Shown here one piece after another: positions 7,828-54,721 of a DNA stretch of 64,000 nt; the first letter of the stretch is position 1; the number at the start of each line of letters is the position of its first letter. The notes under the pieces are model-generated. The model had not been told where the DNA came from. It worked only from the letters and a program-made list of their open reading frames with translations, and did not search any database. This stretch comes from Escherichia phage vB_EcoM_Goslar, in the sequence record NC_048170.1. The stretch is one strand, 5' to 3'. The position numbers and the translations under genes were made by a program.

Positions 7828-9624
7828 TCAATCGATTATGTCGCGATCGTTAATTTCTACAATTTCTTCATCGAATCGACCGACGTCTTTCTTCAAGCCT
7901 GCATTGGTTGCTGCAACGTCATTTGCAATTTGTGGGGTAATGATTAACCGACCGCGCTCATCGATAGGTGCGTACATACTGAACTTCTGACGTCCGGTTG
8001 GTTCGGAGTGTGGAAGATTCAGATAGCTTGCACAGAACGGGATGGAACCACTAACCAAACGACTCTCGTCAGCCAATGCAGCACCGCCTGCGTTTTGGCT
8101 CTGGAGAACAACATGCGTGCTCACTTTGAACAGCATGCAATCACCAGGTGACTGAATCGATGTTGCCACTTTCTCACGTTTATCACGATTGCTCTGGATA
8201 TTGAGAATCGCTTCCGTTGCAACTTGATTTCGCAACGCCTTCTGTACATCGCGATTGGTCATCTCTTTACGGTTGTTCTGTCGTTTACCACGTTCTGTGG
8301 TTTTAAGATGGAACCCCAGTTTAAAGATGCTCTTACGCACATCCTCCATGACATATTCCAACACCATCAATTCCTTACCGAACATCGTCGTGGTATCAAC
8401 ACGACTCATTTCGATAGTGACATTGTCAATCAGATACGCCATAAATTCGTAGAAGTCGTCGCAAGGAATATTTTCCTGTTTGAACTTCTTCTGTTGAATC
8501 TCGTCAACGTAAAGATCGAGACTGTCGATGTGGTGGTTTACATCACGCAACAAACGCGCATCCGCATTGTTGTTATTAAAGATAATCAAACCGAGTAATG
8601 TACGCCAATGGTCTGGCGCATTCGCGAACTCCTCAACCGGATAGTCTTCCGGAAAACGATCGTAATAACGGTCGATGAGATACAAGAATGCACCGACAAG
8701 GCCAAGAACAATACGTTCCGTGCCTCCACGTCTTACAGCAATTTGAATATCAGGATGTTTGTAACGTACAGCGCTAGCGCTACGGCTTTTACCGCTTTTG
8801 CTGATACTAAAGCCTTTAGGAATAACCCCCATGGTGCGATAGATTACCCATTGGTCACGCGGAAAATCACGTTCAGCAAGGTTCCGTCCGGTTACGGCTT
8901 CGACACCTGCAAAACGTCGGAAACACTCACCCACCCCGTACTTCGCAAAGAGATAGTGACCCAGTGTGGTTACGCTGGTGTGGTTGATGTTGTCACCGTT
9001 CACTTTACTTTGTTTAGTAAGATGATAGATTTGCGACCAGGGTAATGACAGGTAATGACGATAATCGATACCGGTCGGTGTATCATTGCTCAGGAACTGA
9101 TACGGTGTACGTTTAACCGTGATTTTGTCACGCGGAAGCATGATGAACGCCATGTCTTTCGTGTAACTGATTACGGGGTCAGCGAGTACCGCACTGAGAA
9201 TGAAGTTCGCACCACGTAGACGCATTTTACCACCCTGACCTACCGCGGGCAATAGGAGAGGATGTCGGATAATGCAGTAGTCCTTTCCTGGTTCACGACG
9301 GTCACCTGATTCCATCGCGCCGTACCAGCGGAATTCCAGCATCACCATAAACACATCGGAAGGCGCAAGGTCGAAGGTCAGCTTACCGCTATCCTTCCCT
9401 TTGGTTTTCTTTCCTCCGCTTAAGTAGTGGAACTGTTCGCGGGCCATACAACGACGCAGGCCATGATACACCAGATCCTTAGGTAAACTATCTTTGCTGT
9501 TCCGCCAAAGACGATCAACATAGGACTCAACATCTTGCATCTTATCGACGACGATGTTGCGTGCTATCTTCTCGTTCATCTTCGGTGCAAGCTCAGCGAC
9601 AGCTTTGCAGAATCTAGGATCCAT
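7828..9624 (-). CDS. hypothetical protein (about 598 aa)
   Basis: ORF track frame; track start 9627 is GTG, adjacent ATG at 9624 has AAGGAG 6 nt upstream. Confidence 0.8.
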   Translation of the reverse strand: MDPRFCKAVAELAPKMNEKIARNIVVDKMQDVESYVDRLWRNSKDSLPKDLVYHGLRRCMAREQFHYLSGGKKTKGKDSGKLTFDLAPSDVFMVMLEFRWYGAMESGDRREPGKDYCIIRHPLLLPAVGQGGKMRLRGANFILSAVLADPVISYTKDMAFIMLPRDKITVKRTPYQFLSNDTPTGIDYRHYLSLPWSQIYHLTKQSKVNGDNINHTSVTTLGHYLFAKYGVGECFRRFAGVEAVTGRNLAERDFPRDQWVIYRTMGVIPKGFSISKSGKSRSASAVRYKHPDIQIAVRRGGTERIVLGLVGAFLYLIDRYYDRFPEDYPVEEFANAPDHWRTLLGLIIFNNNNADARLLRDVNHHIDSLDLYVDEIQQKKFKQENIPCDDFYEFMAYLIDNVTIEMSRVDTTTMFGKELMVLEYVMEDVRKSIFKLGFHLKTTERGKRQNNRKEMTNRDVQKALRNQVATEAILNIQSNRDKREKVATSIQSPGDCMLFKVSTHVVLQSQNAGGAALADESRLVSGSIPFCASYLNLPHSEPTGRQKFSMYAPIDERGRLIITPQIANDVAATNAGLKKDVGRFDEEIVEINDRDIID

Positions 9625-9663
9625 CACACACTCCTTTCAGAAAGTTGCTTAAGCAGATTAAAG

Positions 9664-11438: not shown

Positions 11439-13661
11439 TCAGTTAGTCTGAACCGGCAGCTTGATGTTTTCAGTGTAGACCTTACGCAGGTTCACAACGT
11501 TAATCAGACCCAGCAGCGGGCAGTTGTTAACGAAGCGGCAGCGCGGCTGAACCATGGTTTCTTTAGAAACCTGACCGTTACGGGTAACCTGAGCAACAGA
11601 TACCAGTTCCGGTACATACAGGAACATACCGAAGGTCAGCGGATCCGGAGAACCCTGGATACCACGAGACAGGGTCACGAAGATCTTATCGCGCAGCATG
11701 ACGTTCGGGTTATCTACAACCACGAAGTTGAAGCTTACACCAACGGTACGGAAATCGCCATCGGTCTGCAGGAACTGCGGGATGTAGTTGTCAGTTGCTA
11801 CTACGCAACGCGGTTTCTCATCAGCGTTGGAAGACAGCAGCTGCAGAGCTGGCTGATAACCAGACTCGGAGTACATGCGGTATGCCATCTCACGAATCAC
11901 GTTCATGATCGCAGCAGACACTTCAGCACGACGTTCTGCAGTGGTGGTACCCTGAACAGATTTCTCCAGGTCCAGATTGATTTCTTCGAACCACGGACGG
12001 ATCAGGTAACGACCGAAACCTTCGATCTGGATGTCACCGAACTGACGGAAGCGAGAGGTCGCAACCGCTTTCAGTGCGTCTTTGTAGCTGAACAGTTTCT
12101 CAACCATCAGGTTGTCGAAACGTGCGTTAGCAGCTTGGATCAGAACGTCCAGGTCAGCAGCGTTTTCTTCCCAATCCAGCGGACGAGGAATGGAGAACGG
12201 AGCCAGCAGGCCGATTGCGTAACGTTCTTGCTTCATGTTGAAGTCAAGGTGCTTACCGCGCTCACGACGGTTGCTGTTGTTACGACGGATACGCAGTTCG
12301 TAACCAACCAGTTTGAAGCTCAGGTCTTCAGCCAGTTGTTTGAACTCTTCGCTCTTACGCGGTTGTTCGATGTTGTCCTGATCAACCAGGCGATACAGTT
12401 CAGCGTTAGCGCCGTTAACACGCAGACCCGCTTTCTCTACGTTGGAAGAACCGTAAACTTCGATCGCCAGCTGAGCAGCGGATTTCGCATCGATGATGTC
12501 CTGCAGCGCTTCGGCTTTCGCACCTTTAACGTCTTTGGTGTTCTCATCAACGAAGATGGAGTGGGTGTCGAACGCCAGGGTCATTTTGCGGAAGTCGCCT
12601 TCCAGGGATTTCTGGAAACCGTTGGTGATCAGACCAGATACGTCGAACGGTACGTAAGAGGTTTTGCTGTGCTTGGTAGATTTGATTTCCACCAGGATTT
12701 TGGTCAGCGTGATCTGAGCATCCAGCGCGTCGGTGTTGTCGCTGTAACCGTTAGCCAGAATGCTGTCGTCTTCAGCGATACCGATCATGTCGATCAGTTT
12801 ATCAACAGCCAGGTAAGACGTTTTATAAGTTACGCCTTTAATTTCGATGTCGCGCGGAGCAACGATAGCTTTGTCAACGAAGTACTGCGCGTTAGCATCG
12901 TCAGCACGATAGATCGGATGCAGATCGGTCACGTCGTTGGACAGAACGTCGTTATACATGAACGCATCCAGCAGCGGACGACGTACCCAATCAGCCGGAG
13001 TACCGTCAGCGTTACGACGCAGGTGGTTGAACACCAGCGGACGACGGAAAGATACGTCGTAACCGATCTGGTTCGGAGCCAGAACGATGGTGTTGTACAG
13101 TTCGTTACCCATGCGGCTCAGACGAGAAGCCTTCACGTTGAACACGACGGAGTACGGCATCATGTCACGCAGTTCTTTCTGGTCGTAGGACAGCTGAACC
13201 AGTTCTTCAGATTCGCAACCGCAGGAATCAGCAGCCATCATGACGAAGTTAGAGCTGTCAACTTCACGACCTGACGGAGTGGTGCTGATGTTCATGGAAC
13301 GTGCTTGTTTAGCATATTCTACCGGGTTGCCATGAGCCAGCATGATCAGTGCTGCTGCACGAGCCTGCTGTGCGTTCATGGTGAACAGCTGTTCTTCAAT
13401 ACGCTGCTTCTCTTCCGGAGTGGTGGTTTCGAAGCCCAGCAAGGTCAGAACCGGTTCTTCGGCTTTACGGATGTCGCTGCTGAAGCTCTTAACATCCATT
13501 TCGTTAACCAGTTTGTCCATGGATTTGAAATCAACCTTAGAAGCAGATTCCATAGACAGGAAGGTGTTCTCCAGACCTTTGTCTGCTGGTTTGCTACCAT
13601 TAGCGGTCAGGAACTGGCGAGTGGCCGCGACCTGTTGGCTAAGAAGGGTTTTATCATTCAT
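11439..13661 (-). CDS. major virion structural protein, putative major capsid protein (740 aa); tail sheath is the alternative
   Basis: ORF track; ATG with AAGGA 8 nt upstream; strongly optimised codon usage (CTG, CGT, GGT, AAC, TTC, GAA) unlike neighbours; size matches phiKZ-type capsid proteins (recalled, not searched); 149-nt leader. Confidence 0.6.
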   Translation of the reverse strand: MNDKTLLSQQVAATRQFLTANGSKPADKGLENTFLSMESASKVDFKSMDKLVNEMDVKSFSSDIRKAEEPVLTLLGFETTTPEEKQRIEEQLFTMNAQQARAAALIMLAHGNPVEYAKQARSMNISTTPSGREVDSSNFVMMAADSCGCESEELVQLSYDQKELRDMMPYSVVFNVKASRLSRMGNELYNTIVLAPNQIGYDVSFRRPLVFNHLRRNADGTPADWVRRPLLDAFMYNDVLSNDVTDLHPIYRADDANAQYFVDKAIVAPRDIEIKGVTYKTSYLAVDKLIDMIGIAEDDSILANGYSDNTDALDAQITLTKILVEIKSTKHSKTSYVPFDVSGLITNGFQKSLEGDFRKMTLAFDTHSIFVDENTKDVKGAKAEALQDIIDAKSAAQLAIEVYGSSNVEKAGLRVNGANAELYRLVDQDNIEQPRKSEEFKQLAEDLSFKLVGYELRIRRNNSNRRERGKHLDFNMKQERYAIGLLAPFSIPRPLDWEENAADLDVLIQAANARFDNLMVEKLFSYKDALKAVATSRFRQFGDIQIEGFGRYLIRPWFEEINLDLEKSVQGTTTAERRAEVSAAIMNVIREMAYRMYSESGYQPALQLLSSNADEKPRCVVATDNYIPQFLQTDGDFRTVGVSFNFVVVDNPNVMLRDKIFVTLSRGIQGSPDPLTFGMFLYVPELVSVAQVTRNGQVSKETMVQPRCRFVNNCPLLGLINVVNLRKVYTENIKLPVQTN

Positions 13662-13810
13662 TGAAAGTATCCTTTACAGAATTAACTTATATAAGTCGGT
13701 CGATAGACCATAGCGTACACGCGTGCATGCGCCACTATAGTATCAGTAAACACTTACCGTTATTGAGGTCGTGATACAACACTAAAAATGCCGCATAACT
13801 TTTCCCTACG

Positions 13811-17513: not shown

Positions 17514-17720
17514 CGTATTTTTACCTTTCTATGTTAGGTGGATTGCGGATAGAAGAATCAATGCATAGATTGATCGTTCTATGTTAGAAATTATTGCCGA
17601 ACTGGTTATGGTTATAACGCGTGTTTTCGTATTCTGACGGGTCGCGTATTAATAAGGTCATGACTGTATCCTCGATTATTAAGAGAAATTTACAACGATA
17701 ACAGTAACCGCTGTTATCAT

Positions 17721-17748
17721 CTAGGTAATGTAGTCGCGAAATAAACTG
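17721..17748. promoter_or_regulatory. conserved 28-bp intergenic motif ctaggtaatgtagtcgcgaaataaactg (copy 1)
   Basis: 26/28 identical to 54694..54721; both lie about 25 nt from a hairpin, upstream of the next minus-strand gene. Confidence 0.4.
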
Positions 17749-26494: not shown

Positions 26495-26509
26495 AAAGCG
26501 TTATTCCTC

Positions 26510-27616
26510 TTAAAAGTAATATTTCAGCGCCTCGCGAGAGACATCAAGCATAGCCGCTGTTGAATTCGTAAAGAACTCGGCATAGCCCACAAGCGGCACC
26601 TTGATCCACGCGGTATACGCTGTAAGGTATCGAGAAAGGGCTACCATAGCATCATCAGAAGCAGTAGTAACTGACAACTGACCTTGTTGACGATAAACGT
26701 CGTTAAGTTTTGCTTGTAGATTCCCTGCGATTTCGAGTAACTCGTTGGCGTACTTTTTACGATGGTAACTAACCAGCAAATCAACACCCGTATTTACAGA
26801 CTCGAGTAGAAGACCAACTTGTTCTAATGTTGGCATTGTAACCACCATATCCCGTTCAACGGATGGGACATCCTGGACTTCAAACCGTGCGGATTGAATG
26901 GCGAGGGACTGTTGAATTGATCCAGAACCTGAAGCGGTAACTTGATCGAGTCGTAGCATACGGTTGCCCAGTAACGTCACGTTGACGAGTTTCGATTCGT
27001 TCAGCGTACTGTAGACTTTATGCAATAACGTATACGCATCACGGTTAATCACATCGATTAATGCGGTATCCGTCTGTTTTAAGATAATGTCGAGTGCTCT
27101 ATCTAACGTATTAGCGAACTGCTTAAAATCATCACGGAACGACGAAGACAAGAGATATTCAGCGATCGCTAAATTCTGTTTGTATAACGTATTCCCGGTT
27201 GTGAAATCGAACCCAAAACTGTTCCCATACCGTAGGTGCGGAGCCAACGTCGACGAAGCTTCGAAGCTTTGCGCGATAGGTTTACGACCAACGGCTTTTG
27301 TGTAGTGACGGCGGATGTTGCTGAGTTCGAGCTGTAGTGCGCGACTACGATCGATAAACCGTGCGATAAACGCGGTAATGTTCCGCAACGTTGTCCAGAT
27401 TGCATCGATGATAGCTTTGATGATCTTCATCGCAAGTTGATCGTACGATTCCATTGTGAGGAGATCAGCACTTTCCGTGGTATAACTGGTTGATAGCATA
27501 CCACCCGCTTGCTGATAAATAAGCTGGTGAATTTGTCGTTGCGTTGCTGTCTCTGGCACAGGTAATGTTTTTAACAAGCTTAACGCTTGAATCTGTCCAT
27601 CATTGGTCTGCAGCAT
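26510..27616 (-). CDS. head/internal protein paralog (family member E)
   Basis: ORF track frame; in-frame ATG at 27616 with GAGGAA upstream, overlapping upstream stop by 17 nt; motif ESYDQLAMKIIKAIIDAIW. Confidence 0.75.
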   Translation of the reverse strand: MLQTNDGQIQALSLLKTLPVPETATQRQIHQLIYQQAGGMLSTSYTTESADLLTMESYDQLAMKIIKAIIDAIWTTLRNITAFIARFIDRSRALQLELSNIRRHYTKAVGRKPIAQSFEASSTLAPHLRYGNSFGFDFTTGNTLYKQNLAIAEYLLSSSFRDDFKQFANTLDRALDIILKQTDTALIDVINRDAYTLLHKVYSTLNESKLVNVTLLGNRMLRLDQVTASGSGSIQQSLAIQSARFEVQDVPSVERDMVVTMPTLEQVGLLLESVNTGVDLLVSYHRKKYANELLEIAGNLQAKLNDVYRQQGQLSVTTASDDAMVALSRYLTAYTAWIKVPLVGYAEFFTNSTAAMLDVSREALKYYF

Positions 27617-28901
27617 TGCTGGTTTCCTCAAGTTCGAGATGCGCGTCAAGATAATCATTAAGACCATCGATGACGTCGCAGACAGTTAACAGGAATCGGG
27701 CAAAAGCAACCGCCTGGAAGCCGACGACGTTACGCGCGATACCCACGCGTTGAACGATAGCGGATGCTGCGGTATCGTTATTGCCCATCTGTTGTAGCAA
27801 ACGTTCATACGGTTGAATCCATTCGTCCTGGTCGGCAAGGCTTGCTTCAAGACAACGTTTAAATTCCAACTGTCGTAGCGTAGACCATAACGTACTTAAT
27901 GCGTTGATGATCGCGTTGGTTCCGTCGATAACATCGTTTAACGGTAAGAAACGGAATCCGTCTTTTGCTGATTGGAAAGGTGCGGCTTCCCACACAACGC
28001 TGAACTGCGTTCCTGTTGCGTCTTCGATGTTGTGTAATTTAAGATAGGAAGCACCAACAGGAACGTCAACGACCAGATCGTCTGTTCCGGTAGGTGTTAA
28101 CGGCTTCTCGCATAACGCCTCGTTGATGGCCTCGAGAATATTCTCCCAACAGGCTTCGTTTTCCGCAGCGATACCTTCTTTGTTATCCGCTGATGGTGCT
28201 TTTAGTAGCTGCATTAATAACGGATCAAGTTGACGGTGCCATGCTGCGAGGATTCCTGTGTTCGTTACGATGTTTTCTGCGGTTTGTCGTAAATCAGCAA
28301 TACTGCTTACCGCACCGCCTTTCGGATGGAGATATCGCCAGTTGTAGGGAAAGTTCTCCCAGAATGCGTTATCTTCATCGACGTCGTATTCGGAAATAGT
28401 TTTCAACGCAGCCGCTTTCTTTAATAACGGCTTCACCTGACGAACGAATCGACGATAACAGCGATTGCAGATATCGATCGCATAGCGGTATAATTCGTTC
28501 ATGTAAAGCCATAATGCACGGGTTGCTTCTTTTGCTGTCTTGTCAAAACTTTCCATGTTCAGACTCATCCCGCTGGAAGTTTCCTCTTCCAGACCCTCGA
28601 TGATGTGGTTTGGATCCATCCCCATCCCGGCTGCTGCGGTCGATGCGATATGTTTGATGGTGTTGATATCGCGTTCCTCGACTTCAGCCATGTTTGGGAC
28701 AATATCCAGCCTGAGTTTATTTAATGTTTGAAGGTGTTGTTCACCTTCTTTCATCGCCGTGTTTGTTTCGTCGATTGAGTGAAACTGATTCTCAATATTA
28801 CTGGCATCGAGAATGTTGCCAGCGATACCGAACGATTCTACAGGTTCATCATCAATCCCTTGAAACAACGATGTCATGGGTTGTTGTAACACGTTTTCCA
28901 T
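27600..28901 (-). CDS. head/internal protein paralog (family member C, 433 aa)
   Basis: ORF track; ATG with AGGAG 7 nt upstream; acidic N-terminal region; HIASTAAAGMGM and ESF...ALWLYM motifs shared with neighbours. Confidence 0.8.
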   Translation of the reverse strand: MENVLQQPMTSLFQGIDDEPVESFGIAGNILDASNIENQFHSIDETNTAMKEGEQHLQTLNKLRLDIVPNMAEVEERDINTIKHIASTAAAGMGMDPNHIIEGLEEETSSGMSLNMESFDKTAKEATRALWLYMNELYRYAIDICNRCYRRFVRQVKPLLKKAAALKTISEYDVDEDNAFWENFPYNWRYLHPKGGAVSSIADLRQTAENIVTNTGILAAWHRQLDPLLMQLLKAPSADNKEGIAAENEACWENILEAINEALCEKPLTPTGTDDLVVDVPVGASYLKLHNIEDATGTQFSVVWEAAPFQSAKDGFRFLPLNDVIDGTNAIINALSTLWSTLRQLEFKRCLEASLADQDEWIQPYERLLQQMGNNDTAASAIVQRVGIARNVVGFQAVAFARFLLTVCDVIDGLNDYLDAHLELEETSNAADQ

Positions 28902-29008
28902 TTGGGACTCCTACGTAGGAAAATCTTGGCGGGTGATCATGTCCGCCATTTACCTTCTGAACCGTTGATTCAGAAGTCAAAAGATAACCGGATACCAACG
29001 CCATAAAA

Positions 29009-31666: not shown

Positions 31667-31714
31667 GTGTTGTCTCCAGTAATGATTCAAAAGATAAACC
31701 TGAGCGGCATAGAA

Positions 31715-31746
31715 CCCTCTCCCAACCCGTGAGGGAAGGGAGAGGG
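31715..31746. terminator. GC-rich hairpin ccctctccc-aa-ccc-GTGA-ggg-aa-gggagaggg
   Basis: Perfect stems with GNRA loop; 3' of stop of gene 31769..33091; followed on minus strand by ggttctatgccg. Confidence 0.6.
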
Positions 31747-31768
31747 AATATGTCAGTTTATTAACTGA

Positions 31769-33091
31769 TTACTGCTGTGCTGCGTCAGCCGGTTTCTCAG
31801 CCGCCTGGCCGCCGTACTCTTTCAGCATTTTAGCAACGCCATCCAGGACAGCGTTACCTGCCTGAACACCGTATTTCATCAGACCGGTCTGCGGGTTCAC
31901 GTAGCAGGAACGTGCGTCTTTCAGTGCAGACAGTACAGCTTGAACACGCTGTTTTTCCTGAGCGGAAACTTCGCCTTTCTTAGACAGATCGGCTTCCATA
32001 TCGTCACCGAATTTAACAGCGTCTTTGAAGCCCTGGGATTTCTTACCGATGTTGCCTTTCAGCGCCAGCAGTTTGTCAGCCAGTGCTTCAACACCGCTAA
32101 CCGCAGCAGCCAGCTGATTCAGGGACAGGACGGTAGCTTCAACTTCTTTTGCTTCGCCAGAGCGTTCCCAGGTTACTTTACCATCGTTGGCTTTGAAACC
32201 CCAACCTGCCGGACCAGCAACGTCAGCGATCGCCGGAGCGTTCAGTTTATCAGCGTACTCGGTGTGAGACTTAGCAACAACGGTACCAACGAATTTATCA
32301 GCACGATCGTCAGCAGCCTTCATTGCTTTCTCGAAGGTGTCGGCGATTTTAGTTGCGCCGGTAACCAGATCGTCGCCACCGATGTAGCCTGAAACGCCGC
32401 CACCCAGTTTAACTTTGGTATTTTTAGCAGCGCCTTTACGCTTGCCGATCATTTCTTTCAGTTTAGCGGCACGTGCTTTCAGTTTGGTTGCGCCGTCGAA
32501 GATACGATCCATGAACTTCACGAAGGTTTCCCAGGAAGTTTTCAGGAAGTTCTTGATGGTTGCCCACAGTTTCTGCCACCATTTTTGTTCTTCCAGGAAG
32601 ATCATGTTGGTCGCATCGTAACGGGAAGCGGAACCACCGAAGCTTTCGAAGGACGGCATGGTTTCCGGCAGTTTGAAACCGATAGTACCACACAGACGTT
32701 TCAGATTACGCATGTGTTCCTGAGCGGTTTGTGCAGACATACCACCGTCTTTCAGGTAGCTTTCGGTTGCAACAACGGTTTCCGTCAGTTCATCCATGGC
32801 TTCATCCATGGCTTCTGCGGTTTCGTCGTCTTTTGCAATTTCGATAACAACAGCATCAACCTGCTCGATATCACCACGAACTTCGATAGCCAGTTCGGTT
32901 TCAGCTGCGGTATCTTCAGCGATTTCAGCACGTTCGGTCAGTTCAGCCACAACGGTTTCATCCGCTGGTGCAGCATCAGCTGCCGGTTCTGCTTCAACGG
33001 TTGCCGCTGCATCCGGATCGATCTCAGCAGCCAGTTGAACCAGCTGTGCGTTAGATGGATTTGCGACAAGACGATCAAAAATAGAAGGCAT
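31769..33091 (-). CDS. abundant head/internal protein paralog (family member D, 440 aa), codon-optimised
   Basis: ORF track; ATG with AAGGAAAC 8 nt upstream; highly acidic Ala/Glu/Asp-rich N-terminal 110 aa; codon usage like the 740-aa gene; ESFGG...KLWATIKNF motif. Confidence 0.85.
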   Translation of the reverse strand: MPSIFDRLVANPSNAQLVQLAAEIDPDAAATVEAEPAADAAPADETVVAELTERAEIAEDTAAETELAIEVRGDIEQVDAVVIEIAKDDETAEAMDEAMDELTETVVATESYLKDGGMSAQTAQEHMRNLKRLCGTIGFKLPETMPSFESFGGSASRYDATNMIFLEEQKWWQKLWATIKNFLKTSWETFVKFMDRIFDGATKLKARAAKLKEMIGKRKGAAKNTKVKLGGGVSGYIGGDDLVTGATKIADTFEKAMKAADDRADKFVGTVVAKSHTEYADKLNAPAIADVAGPAGWGFKANDGKVTWERSGEAKEVEATVLSLNQLAAAVSGVEALADKLLALKGNIGKKSQGFKDAVKFGDDMEADLSKKGEVSAQEKQRVQAVLSALKDARSCYVNPQTGLMKYGVQAGNAVLDGVAKMLKEYGGQAAEKPADAAQQ

Positions 33092-33116
33092 AATTTGTTT
33101 CCTTTACAATAAATTG

Positions 33117-33132
33117 CACATTAGCTAATGTG
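33117..33132. promoter_or_regulatory. perfect 16-bp palindrome CACATTAGCTAATGTG upstream of codon-optimised gene
   Basis: Exact inverted repeat 26-41 nt upstream of ATG at 33091; adjacent to hairpin 33135..33159. Confidence 0.4.
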
Positions 33133-33134
33133 GC

Positions 33135-33159
33135 TTAAGTGAACCGTCAGCTCACTTAA
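33135..33159. other. hairpin ttaagtga-N9-tcacttaa overlapping stop codon of gene 33156..33686
   Basis: 8-bp inverted repeat with 9-nt loop; no T-run follows. Confidence 0.4.
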
Positions 33160-33686
33160 AAGCCCTTAAAACCCGGTGCCATAGGTTGCCCAAACACCGC
33201 ATTCAAAGTACATATGATGTCCTGGATGCCATTGTCCCAATGGAGCCAAGTACGCACCATCTCTTCGTCTGACAACGTGATATAACTCATAAGTTTACCG
33301 CTGCTTTCCAGACGTTGGTGTGAACTTAACGACTGACGATCTGACCAGTTATCAATCAATTGACCAGCAATCTGAACGTTCGTGTCTCGTCTACCCGTGT
33401 GAATGAACCGTAGTGTATCGCGGATAAACTCCAGACTGGTGAAATTCAGATTTGGGTTATGGCTGTTCATTTCCACCCAATCGGTGATGGGGTACATCAA
33501 ACGATAAAGGGTAGAAAGAACCTGACGTTCATATTTCCAGTCATCGAGAGGAGTACCGTCGACCAGACGCTGATACAAACTAACAACGTCGCGATCGTAG
33601 TTCTCCTGGCGTTTTACGCCGTTAACCGGAAATCCGAAGAACCCGGTACCGTATAACGTTAAAGGGACGTCACGAAGTGCACTCAT
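33156..33686 (-). CDS. hypothetical protein (176 aa)
   Basis: ORF track; ATG; start overlaps upstream stop by 4 nt. Confidence 0.7.
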   Translation of the reverse strand: MSALRDVPLTLYGTGFFGFPVNGVKRQENYDRDVVSLYQRLVDGTPLDDWKYERQVLSTLYRLMYPITDWVEMNSHNPNLNFTSLEFIRDTLRFIHTGRRDTNVQIAGQLIDNWSDRQSLSSHQRLESSGKLMSYITLSDEEMVRTWLHWDNGIQDIICTLNAVFGQPMAPGFKGF

Positions 33687-34624: not shown

Positions 34625-35731
34625 TTAACGAATCTGTGGGACGTTTCCGGTACGGAGCGCCTGGAGGATCGTCAGAAGATCGGAACCCGAAGTTGACGAA
34701 CTGTTGGATTTTTCCAGTTGCTTGAAGCTTACGGTGGTCCCTTGATCCAAGCTGTGGAAATAGAAGGTCACCATCTCTTCAGCTTCGTCGATGATGATCA
34801 ACTGCATTGCGAGGGCTTCAGCCATGACTTTCTGACGTGTGGTATAGTCAGATAAACGACGTCCGATCTTACGCTCGATGGCTTCCTGGTTAGCCTTAGA
34901 GATGATATAGGTGGAGGCGATTGCTCCAGAAGAAGGGATCTTTGTGCTCGCTGCAGCTTTTGCGGCATTGATGCGCGCAGCATTAACAGCCTTGCGGATA
35001 CCCTCTTTATCCATGCGTGAGATTCGTTTATGTTCACGAACCAGATCGCTAAGCAGGATCATATCGCTCCAGAAAGACAGCTCACCAGCCATCATGCGAT
35101 GCCAACGTGCTCGCCAGGTGTTCTGTGGGCCACCGATCGCTAAAATCGATGCAAGCACTTCCGCTGGAGAGCTTGCAATACGCATGCTGATGTTCAACGG
35201 CATTTTCATCGTTGCCTGACCATCGGTCAGCGTCACGGTTAAGAACTTGCCGGTGACCGCGTTCGCATCTTTGTTCAGCAATTCGATCGCCGCGTCGCTA
35301 GCTCCAACATCGAGGCTATTTTTTTGTTTCCCCTGCAGGTTGAATCCTTTGTCATCAAGGAAAACAAGGCTTTTGCTATCCGCACTTTCCAGCGCTAATT
35401 TGATAGCCTTATCCGTCAGATTAGCATTACGATTTGGGTTCACACGACCCAGCGTTTTATCTACACTGATGTTACCCACCTGCATGATGGTATTCAACGC
35501 CAGTAAATAGAACCCGGTATACATGTTTTCAGCGGTGCGCATGCAGTTGCCTAACGCATTGCGTGCGTCGCTATAATACAACTCACGTTCAAAGATCAAC
35601 GGCGCGATAACGCGTGAAGGTTGTGAGAGTTCAACCAGCGAACCTGGCTGGATAAGTTTATTAACTTCGTAGACTTTAGCGATACCGGACGCAACAACGT
35701 TAACAGCGTCGGCAATTTCTGATGCTACCAT
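34625..35731 (-). CDS. hypothetical protein (368 aa)
   Basis: ORF track; ATG with AAGGA upstream. Confidence 0.75.
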   Translation of the reverse strand: MVASEIADAVNVVASGIAKVYEVNKLIQPGSLVELSQPSRVIAPLIFERELYYSDARNALGNCMRTAENMYTGFYLLALNTIMQVGNISVDKTLGRVNPNRNANLTDKAIKLALESADSKSLVFLDDKGFNLQGKQKNSLDVGASDAAIELLNKDANAVTGKFLTVTLTDGQATMKMPLNISMRIASSPAEVLASILAIGGPQNTWRARWHRMMAGELSFWSDMILLSDLVREHKRISRMDKEGIRKAVNAARINAAKAAASTKIPSSGAIASTYIISKANQEAIERKIGRRLSDYTTRQKVMAEALAMQLIIIDEAEEMVTFYFHSLDQGTTVSFKQLEKSNSSSTSGSDLLTILQALRTGNVPQIR

Positions 35732-35765
35732 ATTGAAATCCTTATTTACAAATAAAGGAAAGAAA

Positions 35766-36971
35766 ATGTCTAATTACTACGACCAAGCTATTCAAACCAT
35801 TCAGGAGAATAATGCGTCGTTAACACCCGAAGCTGTGGAGGCAGCGGGCAATGCGGTGTTATTCACTGATTCGGATTGGGCAATAGCGCGGAAGAATATT
35901 CGTACCAGTGTCGGTCAAGGGACATACGAGGACAGTATCGCCAGACGGTATCGGAACGTGTCACCTATTCCAGGTAACAGCCCGATCCCGATTAACCGCG
36001 ATCATTCCGGTATTACCTTCTTTACACGACCTAATTTACATCTTACCGACGCGAACTTAAAACGAGATCGACGTTTGTGGTCGTTACGCACGGATAACCC
36101 TAACAGTATTCAGGCTGTTGTCCGCGACTACTTGGACCCTGTGGGTGCCAGAAAGCGGAACCATCGAGGACGTGCCATCGTCGATGAGCGCAATCCATTC
36201 ATAAGTATACTGACGGACAACCTGACGGATATCAGCGGTTTCAATGACATGGAAATGCAGGTCTATCAGGGTAAACCGGGATTACGCCAAGAAACCGTTG
36301 TGATGGCTGACGGTTCAGTGGATATGTTTCAACCCTATAACCTGAACGCGACGTTCAAGAACATCATGGGTAACCCCATCATGTTCCTTCATTATATTTG
36401 GTTGATTTACATCGCTGGTGTGCATAATGGCGAACTGACGCCAAGCCCTCAGGCCATCATTGATAATGAAATGGATTACTGGACAAGATGTTATCGTATC
36501 ATCTTGGATCCGACTGGGATGTATGTTCGTTATATCTTCGCGCCGACCGCGATGTTTCCGGTTGGGCTACCGATTGGTAATATGGCCAACTACAGCATCG
36601 ATAAACCCTTCACGCAAGATAACGAACGTATCACTATTCCATACCAAGCGGTTGGTAACAACGCATTTGATGAGATTCTGAAGGATGAATTCAATCGACT
36701 TGTCCTGATGTTCTATTACGGTGAGAACGATACCCGTACGTTCCTTGAAGATGAGGAGTTGGTACCTATCTCACCCTACGAGCGTCGAATCATGTCGTAT
36801 CGTGTCGATATGTATCCATTTATTCATCCGTTGACCTCAGAGCTTCTTTGGTTCGTACCCGCTGATGATTACAACGAATTCTATCTGGACCTTGAGCCGT
36901 CGGCGTTACCACCGGATACGTTCAGTCGCGATCTTGTCCGTACCACCATTCCGCAAAATTACGAGGGATAA
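35766..36971 (+). CDS. hypothetical protein (about 401 aa)
   Basis: ORF track frame; track start 35733 is TTG; ATG at 35766 has AAGGAAAG 7 nt upstream. Confidence 0.75.
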   Translation: MSNYYDQAIQTIQENNASLTPEAVEAAGNAVLFTDSDWAIARKNIRTSVGQGTYEDSIARRYRNVSPIPGNSPIPINRDHSGITFFTRPNLHLTDANLKRDRRLWSLRTDNPNSIQAVVRDYLDPVGARKRNHRGRAIVDERNPFISILTDNLTDISGFNDMEMQVYQGKPGLRQETVVMADGSVDMFQPYNLNATFKNIMGNPIMFLHYIWLIYIAGVHNGELTPSPQAIIDNEMDYWTRCYRIILDPTGMYVRYIFAPTAMFPVGLPIGNMANYSIDKPFTQDNERITIPYQAVGNNAFDEILKDEFNRLVLMFYYGENDTRTFLEDEELVPISPYERRIMSYRVDMYPFIHPLTSELLWFVPADDYNEFYLDLEPSALPPDTFSRDLVRTTIPQNYEG

Positions 36972-46157: not shown

Positions 46158-47468
46158 TTAGGCGATAATGGAATCAAGAGTCGCTGCTGTTTTGAACAGA
46201 TCGCTGTTCATTGTAGAAGAAAGGACTTGCTGAATTTCTTCCTGTTTAACGGCTTTACGAACTCCAGGACGAAGGATAAGCGTAACCATCTGCATAAATG
46301 TACGGTTGTTGTTCATCGCGCTTAACGTTTCATCAATTGTTTTGATGGTATCTAACGTAGTGGAGCGTATGTCGCTAGGGAGGTCACGATCTTTCAGACG
46401 TATAATCAAATCTTGTTTGATTTTTCTGAATCGTTCCATATCGTTGTCATAGATGCTGTATGTCGGATCTAACCAAACTGCAAGCGCCATAGCAGCAACA
46501 AATATTGCCATACCAAGAATATTAACCGAGGTGAAGCTGATCGCTATCAAAATTGTCACGGCTGCATCTTTAATGAAGGAGAGCCAGAACATCGTTTTGG
46601 ACTTCATGGAGTTGGTGCCATAAAGCCGAAACATTTTAGCAAGCCCGCTAACGAGATACTCCCCACTGCCGTGACGTGTAGCGAACTGATCGGCCATGAA
46701 TTCGGAAGCAACGTCGGTATATCGTCCAGCGTTGTTTACATTTCTTAACTGCATCGCTTTGTTAGACACGTAAACCGTGTACCAGACACTACCATCGTCT
46801 GAATCACTGATTTTATTTACGTCGACGTTAGTATCTAGCGTTTTGTTTAACGCTTTCGCCAGTTCGATACGTTTTACCTTATCGGTTGTTCCCAACAGTT
46901 CGCGCTGCACGGTCATGATTGAGGCTTCGACACGAACCGTTTCCGACAATGTTTCAAGGAAAGTAAACGCATGACCGATTTCATGCAGCATTATGGCTGC
47001 TTTTTCTTCCGGAAGAAAGGGTTCTGTCGCTGTTAGCAATTCATACGTGATGGCAGAACGAATCTTCAACTCCTCAAAAATACCGTAAACGCGACCTTTT
47101 TCTAAATCGACGTAACCGACAGGTGCATCTTTAATCTTCTTAAGAAGTGCGACACCATCGACACCACGCATCCATAATCGATGATAGTCTGCCAATATCG
47201 CGTTGTTTGTTGAAATATCCGGCGGGTACACGTAGGCATTCATCTGGCCCATTTTCACGTCAACCGAAAATTCGATGTTCAACCCCGTATAGCGTTTAAC
47301 CATCTCGGTTAAACGACCGTCCTTGAAAACGTTTAAAACCTCTTTTTTATCCAGTCCCTGTTTGCTTCTGAAGAACTCGGTCATTTCCTTGAACAAGGAA
47401 CCATCCTGAAACTTGATGGCCTCCATCGTTAATTCGTCATGACCATACACGCGTTGTAGTAATGACAT
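46158..47468 (-). CDS. putative membrane-associated zinc metallopeptidase (HExxH motif, 436 aa)
   Basis: ORF track; ATG with GAGAG upstream; AAIMLHEIGHAF encoded at 46985..46971 (verified by direct reading); two hydrophobic segments near residues 290-335. Confidence 0.7.
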   Translation of the reverse strand: MSLLQRVYGHDELTMEAIKFQDGSLFKEMTEFFRSKQGLDKKEVLNVFKDGRLTEMVKRYTGLNIEFSVDVKMGQMNAYVYPPDISTNNAILADYHRLWMRGVDGVALLKKIKDAPVGYVDLEKGRVYGIFEELKIRSAITYELLTATEPFLPEEKAAIMLHEIGHAFTFLETLSETVRVEASIMTVQRELLGTTDKVKRIELAKALNKTLDTNVDVNKISDSDDGSVWYTVYVSNKAMQLRNVNNAGRYTDVASEFMADQFATRHGSGEYLVSGLAKMFRLYGTNSMKSKTMFWLSFIKDAAVTILIAISFTSVNILGMAIFVAAMALAVWLDPTYSIYDNDMERFRKIKQDLIIRLKDRDLPSDIRSTTLDTIKTIDETLSAMNNNRTFMQMVTLILRPGVRKAVKQEEIQQVLSSTMNSDLFKTAATLDSIIA

Positions 47469-47689
47469 TGTACACTCTCTAAATTTACGTAAATTTAAGG
47501 GCTAATGGATCGGCTGGCCGCACCAATCACAATGTGTCCGCTGCTATGCAACGGCATTCATAGAAATACCTTTTGACGGTAACATCACCCATCACACCCC
47601 AAGCAATAAGAGTGGTCGGTTAAAAACAACAGAACGTGAGGATGATATAGAAATTCACCTTTTAACACCTATTACGAGTTTATCAAGCC

Positions 47690-54622: not shown

Positions 54623-54692
54623 CTCGACATCCTTTTATATTGGATTGATTGCAATTGTCTTAAATAGATGATAAGATATTTTGCTCTTATCA

Positions 54693-54721
54693 CTAAGGTA
54701 ATGTAGTCGTGAAATAAACTG
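54693..54721. promoter_or_regulatory. conserved 28-bp intergenic motif ctaaggtaatgtagtcgtgaaataaactg (copy 2)
   Basis: 26/28 identical to 17721..17748; about 70 nt upstream of ATG 54622 on minus strand. Confidence 0.4.

Follow-up and report, generated by a model that had tools for sequence, protein, structure and literature searches.

The operators of phage 434, 14-bp sites of the form ACAA-N6-TTGT, are addressed by dimeric helix-turn-helix regulators, and stem-loops in 5' leaders stabilise or insulate abundant mRNAs of phages and bacteria. Phages of the phiKZ type possess two unusual multisubunit RNA polymerases, their middle and late promoters are not predictable from sequence, and an unexplained sequence downstream of the start site affects promoter efficiency (PMC7598289, PMC12809450). 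The early promoters, which serve the virion RNA polymerase, are built around an AT-rich core, TATATTAC, centred near position -10 (PMC7598289, PMC8244752), the phiKZ late promoter is 5'-TATG-3' with the start at the G and a requirement for all four bases (PMC7598289), and a terminator combined with a TTAT(G) motif has already been described for phiKZ (PMC10914365). The chimallin gene of phiKZ, PHIKZ054, carries a secondary promoter of the middle class in its leader (PMC8244752). The literature searched (promoters, palindromes) holds no description of leader palindrome elements of jumbo phages, no transcription factor/operator pair for Chimalliviridae and no mention of the string CATTAGCTAATG.

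The window, the whole stretch of 64,000 nucleotides that was analysed, belongs to a phiKZ-like jumbo phage of the chimallin type that is very divergent. A comparison with 50,697 phage records gave no close match at the DNA level. Metagenomes contain near-identical genomes some 238 kb in length, one protein cluster carries the NCBI label Salmonella enterica, and the gene order is that of Erwinia phage RAY at 25-34% protein identity. A gp91-like gene, the product of which reaches a best identity of 35% in the phage records, is followed on the minus strand by IP1, the first of an array of phiKZ-type internal head protein paralogues, and the genes for the major capsid protein (11439-13661), the tail tube protein and other virion proteins are also near. 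On the mRNA (minus) strand, the spacer between the two genes reads ggc ttt TAA gtgagctgacggttcacttaa gc CACATTAGCTAATGTG caatttattgtAAAGGAAacaaatt ATG (Table 1). The phage's own chimallin gene is not within the 64-kb window, and a search with the chimallin profile returned only chimallins of the RAY/SA002/Proteus type and a few distant ones, the window phage's own gene not being among them.

Table 1. Features of the IP1 leader and of comparable leaders (positions in the window unless another phage is named)
Feature	Position	Strand	Basis or remarks
Perfect 16-bp palindrome CACATTAGCTAATGTG	33117..33132	.	sequence; exact
Conserved palindrome core, 14-mer ACATTAGCTAATGT	33118-33131	.	L012, L013, chimallin leaders of other phages
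Second, weak dyad CAAT-TT-ATTG, adjoining the palindrome on its downstream side	33107..33116	minus	sequence; significance uncertain
RNA stem-loop (GGCU..UUAAGUGAGC-loop-GGUUCACUUAA..AGCC), 14 pairs	33132..33164	minus	folding and covariation; this species only
Homologue of phiKZ gp91 vertex-binding protein, gene upstream of IP1	33156..33686	minus	PF25618, E = 1e-46
Shine-Dalgarno of IP1, AAGGA	33100-33104	minus	sequence; AAGGAA conserved in L012 and L013
ATG of IP1	33089-33091	minus	sequence
IP1, phiKZ-type internal head protein served by the leader	31769..33091	minus	PF12699 phiKZ_IP, E = 4.8e-23; phrog_5750
Small hairpin TCAGTTAATAAACTGA (TCAGTT-AATA-AACTGA), immediately following the IP1 stop and preceding the GC-rich terminator	31753-31768	minus	
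Downstream boundary of the IP1 unit: small hairpin, nested GC-rich terminator hairpin, then TTCTATGCCG (terminator + TATG late-promoter motif)	31705..31768	minus	also in L012 and L013
28-bp motif, reading GTTTATTTCRCGACTACATTACCTAGRTGATAA	11251-11276, 17717-17742, 54690-54715	minus	
Perfect palindrome ACTTATATAAGT, leader of the major capsid protein gene	13685-13696		23 nt before the ATG
Chimallin leader, SA002 and relatives			AATTACCATGGTAATT plus CAATCGCGATTG
Chimallin leader, P0013, P0020 and the distant P0023			CATTCGCGAATG
Chimallin leader, LucasX and P0025			(T)GTTCGCGCGAAC(A)
Chimallin leader, PhiPA3 (L393)			TACTTGATCAAGTA
Chimallin leader, phiKZ (L395)	45,5xx-45,647 (phiKZ)		after TATATTAC, three consecutive perfect palindromes: TAGTATACTA and CTAAGTACTTAG (both shorter), then TTCTTGATCAAGAA

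The initial annotation had reported an exact 16-bp palindrome 26-41 nt upstream of the IP1 ATG, and this is what the sequence holds, with 25 nt separating the palindrome from the ATG at 33091. Perfect palindromes with 8-bp arms number 5 in the 64 kb, against about 0.8 expected. The palindrome by itself is not significant, because about one such palindrome is expected per 64 kb, and its significance therefore comes through location and conservation, not through symmetry alone. The search for further copies that the annotation had proposed gave no second one in the window, neither of the 16-mer nor of the 14-mer, with up to 3 mismatches tolerated; with one copy here and one in the 271 kb of RAY, the palindrome does not behave as a repeated extragenic palindrome or dispersed repeat. 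At the place of the second dyad, relatives also have a short perfect palindrome (AATTCGAATT in L012, ACTTGCAAGT in RAY).

Nine near-identical relatives keep the palindrome, which is little informative at 98% identity. The sole substitution within its arms among them, an A to G change at the second base of the left arm (CGCATTAGCTAATGTG) in five of the nine, breaks the symmetry of the DNA and retains a G.U pair in the sense RNA. Two distant relatives, L012 and L013 (gp91 70% and 52% identical, respectively), both have an IP gene after gp91, and their spacers cannot be aligned with that of the window except for ACATTAGCTAATGT and the Shine-Dalgarno sequence AAGGAA. In a k-mer comparison of about 3.3 kb, coding DNA included, ACATTAGCTAATGT was the only stretch of at least 12 nt common to all three phages and the only 14-mer common to the window and L013. 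The outermost pair of the 16-mer is free, being C-G in the window, A/A in L012 and A-T in L013, and is also broken in RAY; the strictly invariant part is CATTAGCTAATGT. Lack of conservation in related phages, which according to the annotation would have spoken against a function, is thus the opposite of what is seen in L012, L013 and the chimallin leaders described below, where the palindrome is exceptionally conserved. As the distance from gp91 to the next gene is 10-27 nt in other clades (LucasX, PhiEaH1, PhiPA3) and 64 nt here, the spacer together with its element was acquired by the window's clade, of which GTDB genomes and IMG/VR contain no further gp91 relatives.

The same element stands before the gene of chimallin, the shell protein of the phage nucleus. 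Scanning IMG/VR for CATTAGCTAATGT followed by AAGGAA within 12-40 nt returned, beyond the window's own species, three contigs with the motif right before a chimallin gene (PF25677), one of which is Erwinia phage RAY. Placed downstream of the early-promoter core and upstream of the Shine-Dalgarno sequence of the chimallin gene, the identical 14-mer is present in the leaders of RAY, AH06, L081, L056 and the contig of P0009, of Proteus phage 10 (chimallin 54% identical to RAY's) and of the contig of P0022 (50% identical), P0009 and P0022 standing for metagenomic lineages, with flanks that are unrelated and not alignable between these leaders. In the whole genome of RAY it occurs once, at 181652-181665, with 26 nt separating it from the CTATATTAC core upstream and 31 nt from the chimallin ATG downstream; the distance past the early-promoter core is 22-28 nt in RAY, Proteus phage 10 and the P0022 contig. 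Other genes of RAY are also preceded by CTATATTA, in every case on the coding strand, and this sequence is the same as the early-promoter core of phiKZ. Upstream of the palindrome in the window no promoter is recognisable. Across six lineages the 14 bp are perfectly symmetric, and the element never leaves the transcribed leader, where 11-21 nt separate it from the Shine-Dalgarno sequence downstream.

The exact 14-mer has at least 120 unrelated matches in IMG/VR, and no homologue of IP1 or gp91 stands beside it among the matches listed. A scan of IMG/VR for a related AGGAG pattern gave contexts that mostly look coding (e.g. ..ALANV..), and in an early-promoter 14-mer scan the known copy was alone among the matches listed. 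A large family of small contigs with ...gcataccgCATTAGCTAATGT and a GC hairpin reads as a coding C-terminus (..YRIS*) and is a probable coincidence; a degenerate family, ACATTANCTAAT, with nine matches in RAY against two to six in shuffled sequences, was not compelling.

Other Chimalliviridae possess different perfect palindromes of 12-16 bp at the same spot of the chimallin leader (Table 1). For the longest palindrome per leader, shuffling gives P values of 0.001-0.03 each, and most lineages sampled carry 12-16 bp. Where sister elements differ, they do so in a paired, symmetric manner, as in CAATCGCGATTG versus CATTCGCGAATG (CAAT/ATTG versus CATT/AATG) and in TTCTTGATCAAGAA of phiKZ versus TACTTGATCAAGTA of PhiPA3 (TT../..AA versus TA../..TA), and the arms are common to CATT-CGCG-AATG and CATT-AGCT-AATG. 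Paired changes of this kind in the sister elements, together with the six symmetric lineages, are those of a dyad-symmetric site selected for symmetry, as an operator would be. The capsid leader of RAY (267934-267947) carries AACTTATATAAGTT, although the capsid proteins of RAY and the window share only 32% identity and their leaders are otherwise different. Leaders of the window exceed coding DNA 6.6-fold in their density of perfect palindromes with arms of at least 6 bp (four observed versus about 0.6 expected), and those of RAY do so 2.6-fold, an excess for part of which AT-richness accounts.

It is conceivable, if rather doubtful, that leader palindromes of 12-16 bp in the most abundant genes (chimallin, capsid, internal head proteins) form an unrecognised family-wide control class of nucleus-forming jumbo phages, which would be read by dedicated symmetric factors or by RNA self-pairing; ACATTAGCTAATGT, CATTCGCGAATG, GTTCGCGCGAAC, CTTGATCAAG and ACTTATATAAGT would then be exchangeable alleles of the class, which is doubtful to the same degree. 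If true, such a class would supply promoter-proximal specificity missed by sequence logos, for non-early transcription or for selective handling of mRNAs.

Further palindromes were seen in these genomes. Two of the three phiKZ chimallin-leader palindromes contain TACT, the published middle-promoter motif. RAY has an early-type core, CTATATTAT, followed after 13 nt by the dyad ACATTAACTAATCA before gp188 (157291-157325), and another, CTACATTAC, that is separated by 8 nt from the 16-bp palindrome TATGTTGTACAACATA behind it (99040-99077). In the window, 11 nt separate an 18-bp perfect palindrome, TAAATTTACGTAAATTTA (47480-47497), which has CATTAGC just upstream, from the ATG of gene 46158-47468, a homologue of the RAY virion protein gp286; the intergenic region is divergent, with a DNA-polymerase-like gene on its other side. 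A 12-bp perfect palindrome, TCCTACGTAGGA (28909-28920), overlaps the Shine-Dalgarno sequence of the fourth internal head protein paralogue (27600-28901). The tail tube gene probably starts with the ATG at 35766, not with the TTG at 35733, so that about 34 nt (35732-35765) are left to the divergent gene 34625-35731, and this stretch is a near-palindrome (CCTTTATTTGTAAATAAGG) with both ribosome sites. Throughout a 1.1-kb gap in the simple gene map (26495-27599), one minus-strand frame is open (end ...ALKYYF*), probably another gene, and the 14-bp palindrome AAGCTTCGAAGCTT at 27256 is therefore probably coding.

Beside the palindrome, the hairpin ttaagtga-N9-tcacttaa, noticed already by the annotation as overlapping the stop codon of the upstream gene, is found at 33135-33159 over the gp91-like stop (33156-33158) and extends to 14 pairs, which are part of a centroid fold of -16.7 kcal/mol. 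Among close relatives it is where the mutations of the region concentrate, yet 98% of cells are paired, compared with 18-52% in slid controls. Compensatory double changes affect two pairs, UA to CG and GC to AU (L009, L010), and several single changes pass via G.U pairs that are functional on the sense strand only. This covariation and the sense-only wobble pairs identify the hairpin as an RNA stem of the minus-strand transcript. It is absent from L012 and L013, and since the palindrome is kept there, the two are not one unit; in our reading the hairpin does not belong to the conserved element and would, in this species only, end the gp91 message or stabilise it. Intrinsic (Rho-independent) terminators are unlike both elements: no T-run or U-tract follows, the terminator scan lists neither of them and the stems are AU-rich. 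The terminators of this phage are built otherwise, from a nested GC hairpin plus TTATG.

The annotation had also likened one half of the palindrome to the core of a conserved 28-bp motif, and correctly so, as ACATTAGCTA and ACATTACCTA (minus strand) differ at one base and ACATTA[C/G]CTA occurs in the window in the palindrome and two copies of the 28-bp motif only. The motif comes after terminator hairpins and before the polymerase-family gene 7828-9627 (phrog_2943 'polymerase'; homologous to RAY gp2, the annotated nvRNAP beta subunit 1) and before small ORFs without a known function. Its core resembles TATATTAC of phiKZ and RAY, and the motif is most likely the early (virion polymerase) promoter of the window phage. 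The palindrome itself departs from a phiKZ-type early promoter, sharing nine of ten core bases but being single-copy and without the upstream block GTTTATTTCRCGACT; the early core of RAY-type phages differs, so that the likeness to the 28-bp motif may be phage-specific or a coincidence. A phiKZ-type late promoter would have TATG where the palindrome has AATG.

A nested GC-rich hairpin (CCCTCTCCC..CCCGTGAGGG..GGGAGAGGG) is present in eight copies of about 40 nt each (4850, 11299, 16097, 17774, 28999, 31705, 39980 and 61435), several of which are followed by TTYTATGCCG on the coding strand; the spacer between IP1 and IP2 in L012 and L013 likewise has a GC hairpin and then TTTTATGCCG. The nested hairpin with TATG matches the published phiKZ motif and would accordingly be a predicted terminator fused to a TATG late promoter. 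As promoters for IP1 two further candidates were discarded: the TATG inside the 3' end of gp91 (CCTATGGCA) is not conserved in L012 or L013, and for a host sigma-70 promoter nothing convincing was seen, the flanks not being conserved.

Judged from these comparisons, the element is functional, self-contained within 14 bp, gene-specific and portable between genes, and is selected for full dyad symmetry as well as exact sequence; its single copy per genome argues for gene specificity and against a general promoter class. Our tentative preference, held at less than even confidence, is that the 14-bp palindrome is an operator-like site for a symmetric phage factor, read as double-stranded DNA. Weak folding as RNA, combined with a symmetry that is complete through the centre, points to recognition of the duplex by such a factor, and symmetry that spans the central four bases with paired changes argues against an RNA hairpin, the loop of which needs no such constraint. 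A symmetric (dimeric) factor encoded by the phage would bind the site in the IP1 leader, between the upstream gp91 operon and the ribosome-binding site, and the bound site would set the amount or timing of transcription into the gene of the very abundant head protein, either by activation of an internal start or by a block to read-through. In other nucleus-forming jumbo phages the same site, presumably with the same factor specificity, would act just downstream of the chimallin early promoter. The proposal of the annotation, an operator for a dimeric regulator, is thus sustained as to conservation, gene specificity, selected symmetry and position before a highly expressed gene; the binding of a protein, the choice of DNA over RNA as target and the direction of the effect are what we infer beyond this. 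Several points weigh against an operator. Perfect central symmetry is rarely needed by operators, two or three different palindromes in a row, as in several leaders such as that of phiKZ, would call for several factors, and the left-arm A to G change in five of nine close relatives breaks the DNA symmetry and keeps the G.U pair of the sense RNA. Chimallin is early and the IP genes are presumably later, so that one regulator for both is not obviously sensible. A cognate DNA-binding protein did not emerge: RAY gp94 (HTH_3, HigA-like), the one annotated HTH protein of RAY and the only candidate considered, was rejected, as its phylogenetic distribution does not match that of the site.

A somewhat unlikely alternative is that the site of action is the mRNA, where the palindrome would form a small hairpin or, being self-complementary, pair two transcripts with each other, and that an RNA-binding factor of phage or host raises translation, stability or handling of the abundant messages of chimallin, IP1 and the capsid protein. 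The constant place in the transcribed leader of six lineages is consistent with it, as are the G.U pairing that the arm substitution preserves on the sense strand, the change of the outermost pair from C-G to A-T in L013 and the clear evolution of the neighbouring hairpin as sense-strand RNA; an intermolecular duplex would also account for perfect symmetry through the centre. However, as RNA the palindrome alone reaches only -4.2 kcal/mol in the window, -1.6 in L012 and -1.9 in L013, with z-scores of -1.0 to -0.1 against shuffled sequences, its hairpin is outside the minimum-energy fold of the 91-nt spacer context of the window, and no Rfam family matches at E <= 1, so that it does not behave as a structured RNA, whereas the neighbouring hairpin does pass the covariation test. 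The RNA processing site that the annotation had offered as a second possibility finds no support for the same reasons, the weak fold and the missing Rfam family. Moreover, the loop AGCU is invariant and self-complementary, which is not required of a hairpin, the outer pair is broken in L012 and RAY, and the exact sequence is kept across phages at 25-34% protein identity, beyond the needs of a structure.

Still less probable, and in our view unlikely, is that the palindrome is or contains a secondary promoter of a phage RNA polymerase, middle-class or weak early-type, which would make IP1 a separate strong unit between the upstream hairpin and the downstream terminator. The phiKZ chimallin gene has a primary early start and a secondary one with a middle motif (PMC8244752), in the same tandem layout as the early core and palindrome of RAY, and a start in or near the palindrome would give a leader of 26-35 nt, near the 31-40 nt typical of phiKZ (PMC8244752). 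IP1 is also without a TATG-type promoter of its own, while IP2 has the hairpin and TTTTATGCCG in all three lineages, and no non-coding block before IP1 other than the palindrome and the ribosome site is conserved, the left half of the palindrome matching nine of ten bases of the presumed early core of the window. Promoter classes recur, however, whereas the palindrome is single-copy in the 271 kb of RAY and the 64 kb of the window; it is without the upstream TTTATTTC block of the window's early motif and has AATG in place of the TATG that is strictly required at a phiKZ late promoter (PMC7598289). The early core of RAY-type phages being TATATTAC, the likeness to an early promoter is specific to the window, and promoters need neither dyad symmetry nor compensatory symmetric changes. 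That the palindrome is a functionless chance product of an AT-rich spacer is very improbable. By chance, 64 kb should contain about one perfect 16-bp palindrome, the odds are a few-fold higher in AT-rich leaders, and the unrelated 14-mer matches in IMG/VR that were inspected in the follow-up pattern scans are largely coding; chance is nevertheless refuted by the conservation data, namely exact conservation at 70% and 52% protein identity while the flanks are randomised, and identical sequence at the equivalent chimallin leader position in at least three further lineages. What probability the operator, leader RNA and promoter readings leave over falls to other mechanisms.

A symmetric element that is identical across phages with just 25-50% protein identity, and that invariably occupies the leader of one of the most highly expressed genes, offers a concrete handle: it can serve as bait for the regulator, can be mutated in tractable phages such as RAY and may be a portable part for the control of expression. 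It also links the regulation of the nuclear shell gene with that of head internal proteins.

Compared with the systems described, the palindrome shares with 5' leader stem-loops the location in the leader of very highly expressed genes and the character of an inverted repeat, but its stems are too weak and its loop and sequence are conserved, unlike under a constraint on pairing only. Like phiKZ-type early promoters, it is placed after a hairpin and before a gene, with a left half, ACATTAGCTA, that matches the window core ACATTACCTA at nine of ten positions; unlike them, it is palindromic, single-copy and without the conserved upstream T-rich block, and RAY-type phages have it in addition to a bona fide TATATTAC core, which it follows and does not replace. 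With the secondary promoter of PHIKZ054 it has in common, in chimallin leaders, the place downstream of an early promoter and upstream of the ribosome site, where the phiKZ and PhiPA3 leaders have perfect palindromes, whereas the middle motif described for phiKZ consists of an A-rich run and TACT at -22 and is no palindrome. The operators addressed by dimeric helix-turn-helix regulators, as in phage 434, differ in that the palindrome is one site and not part of an operator array, its symmetry is perfect through the centre, its regulator is a hypothetical one and its phage group encloses the DNA in a protein nucleus; they agree with it in being a 14-bp dyad site, gene-specific and conserved far beyond the surroundings, and, as regards the chimallin leaders, in lying beside or downstream of a promoter.
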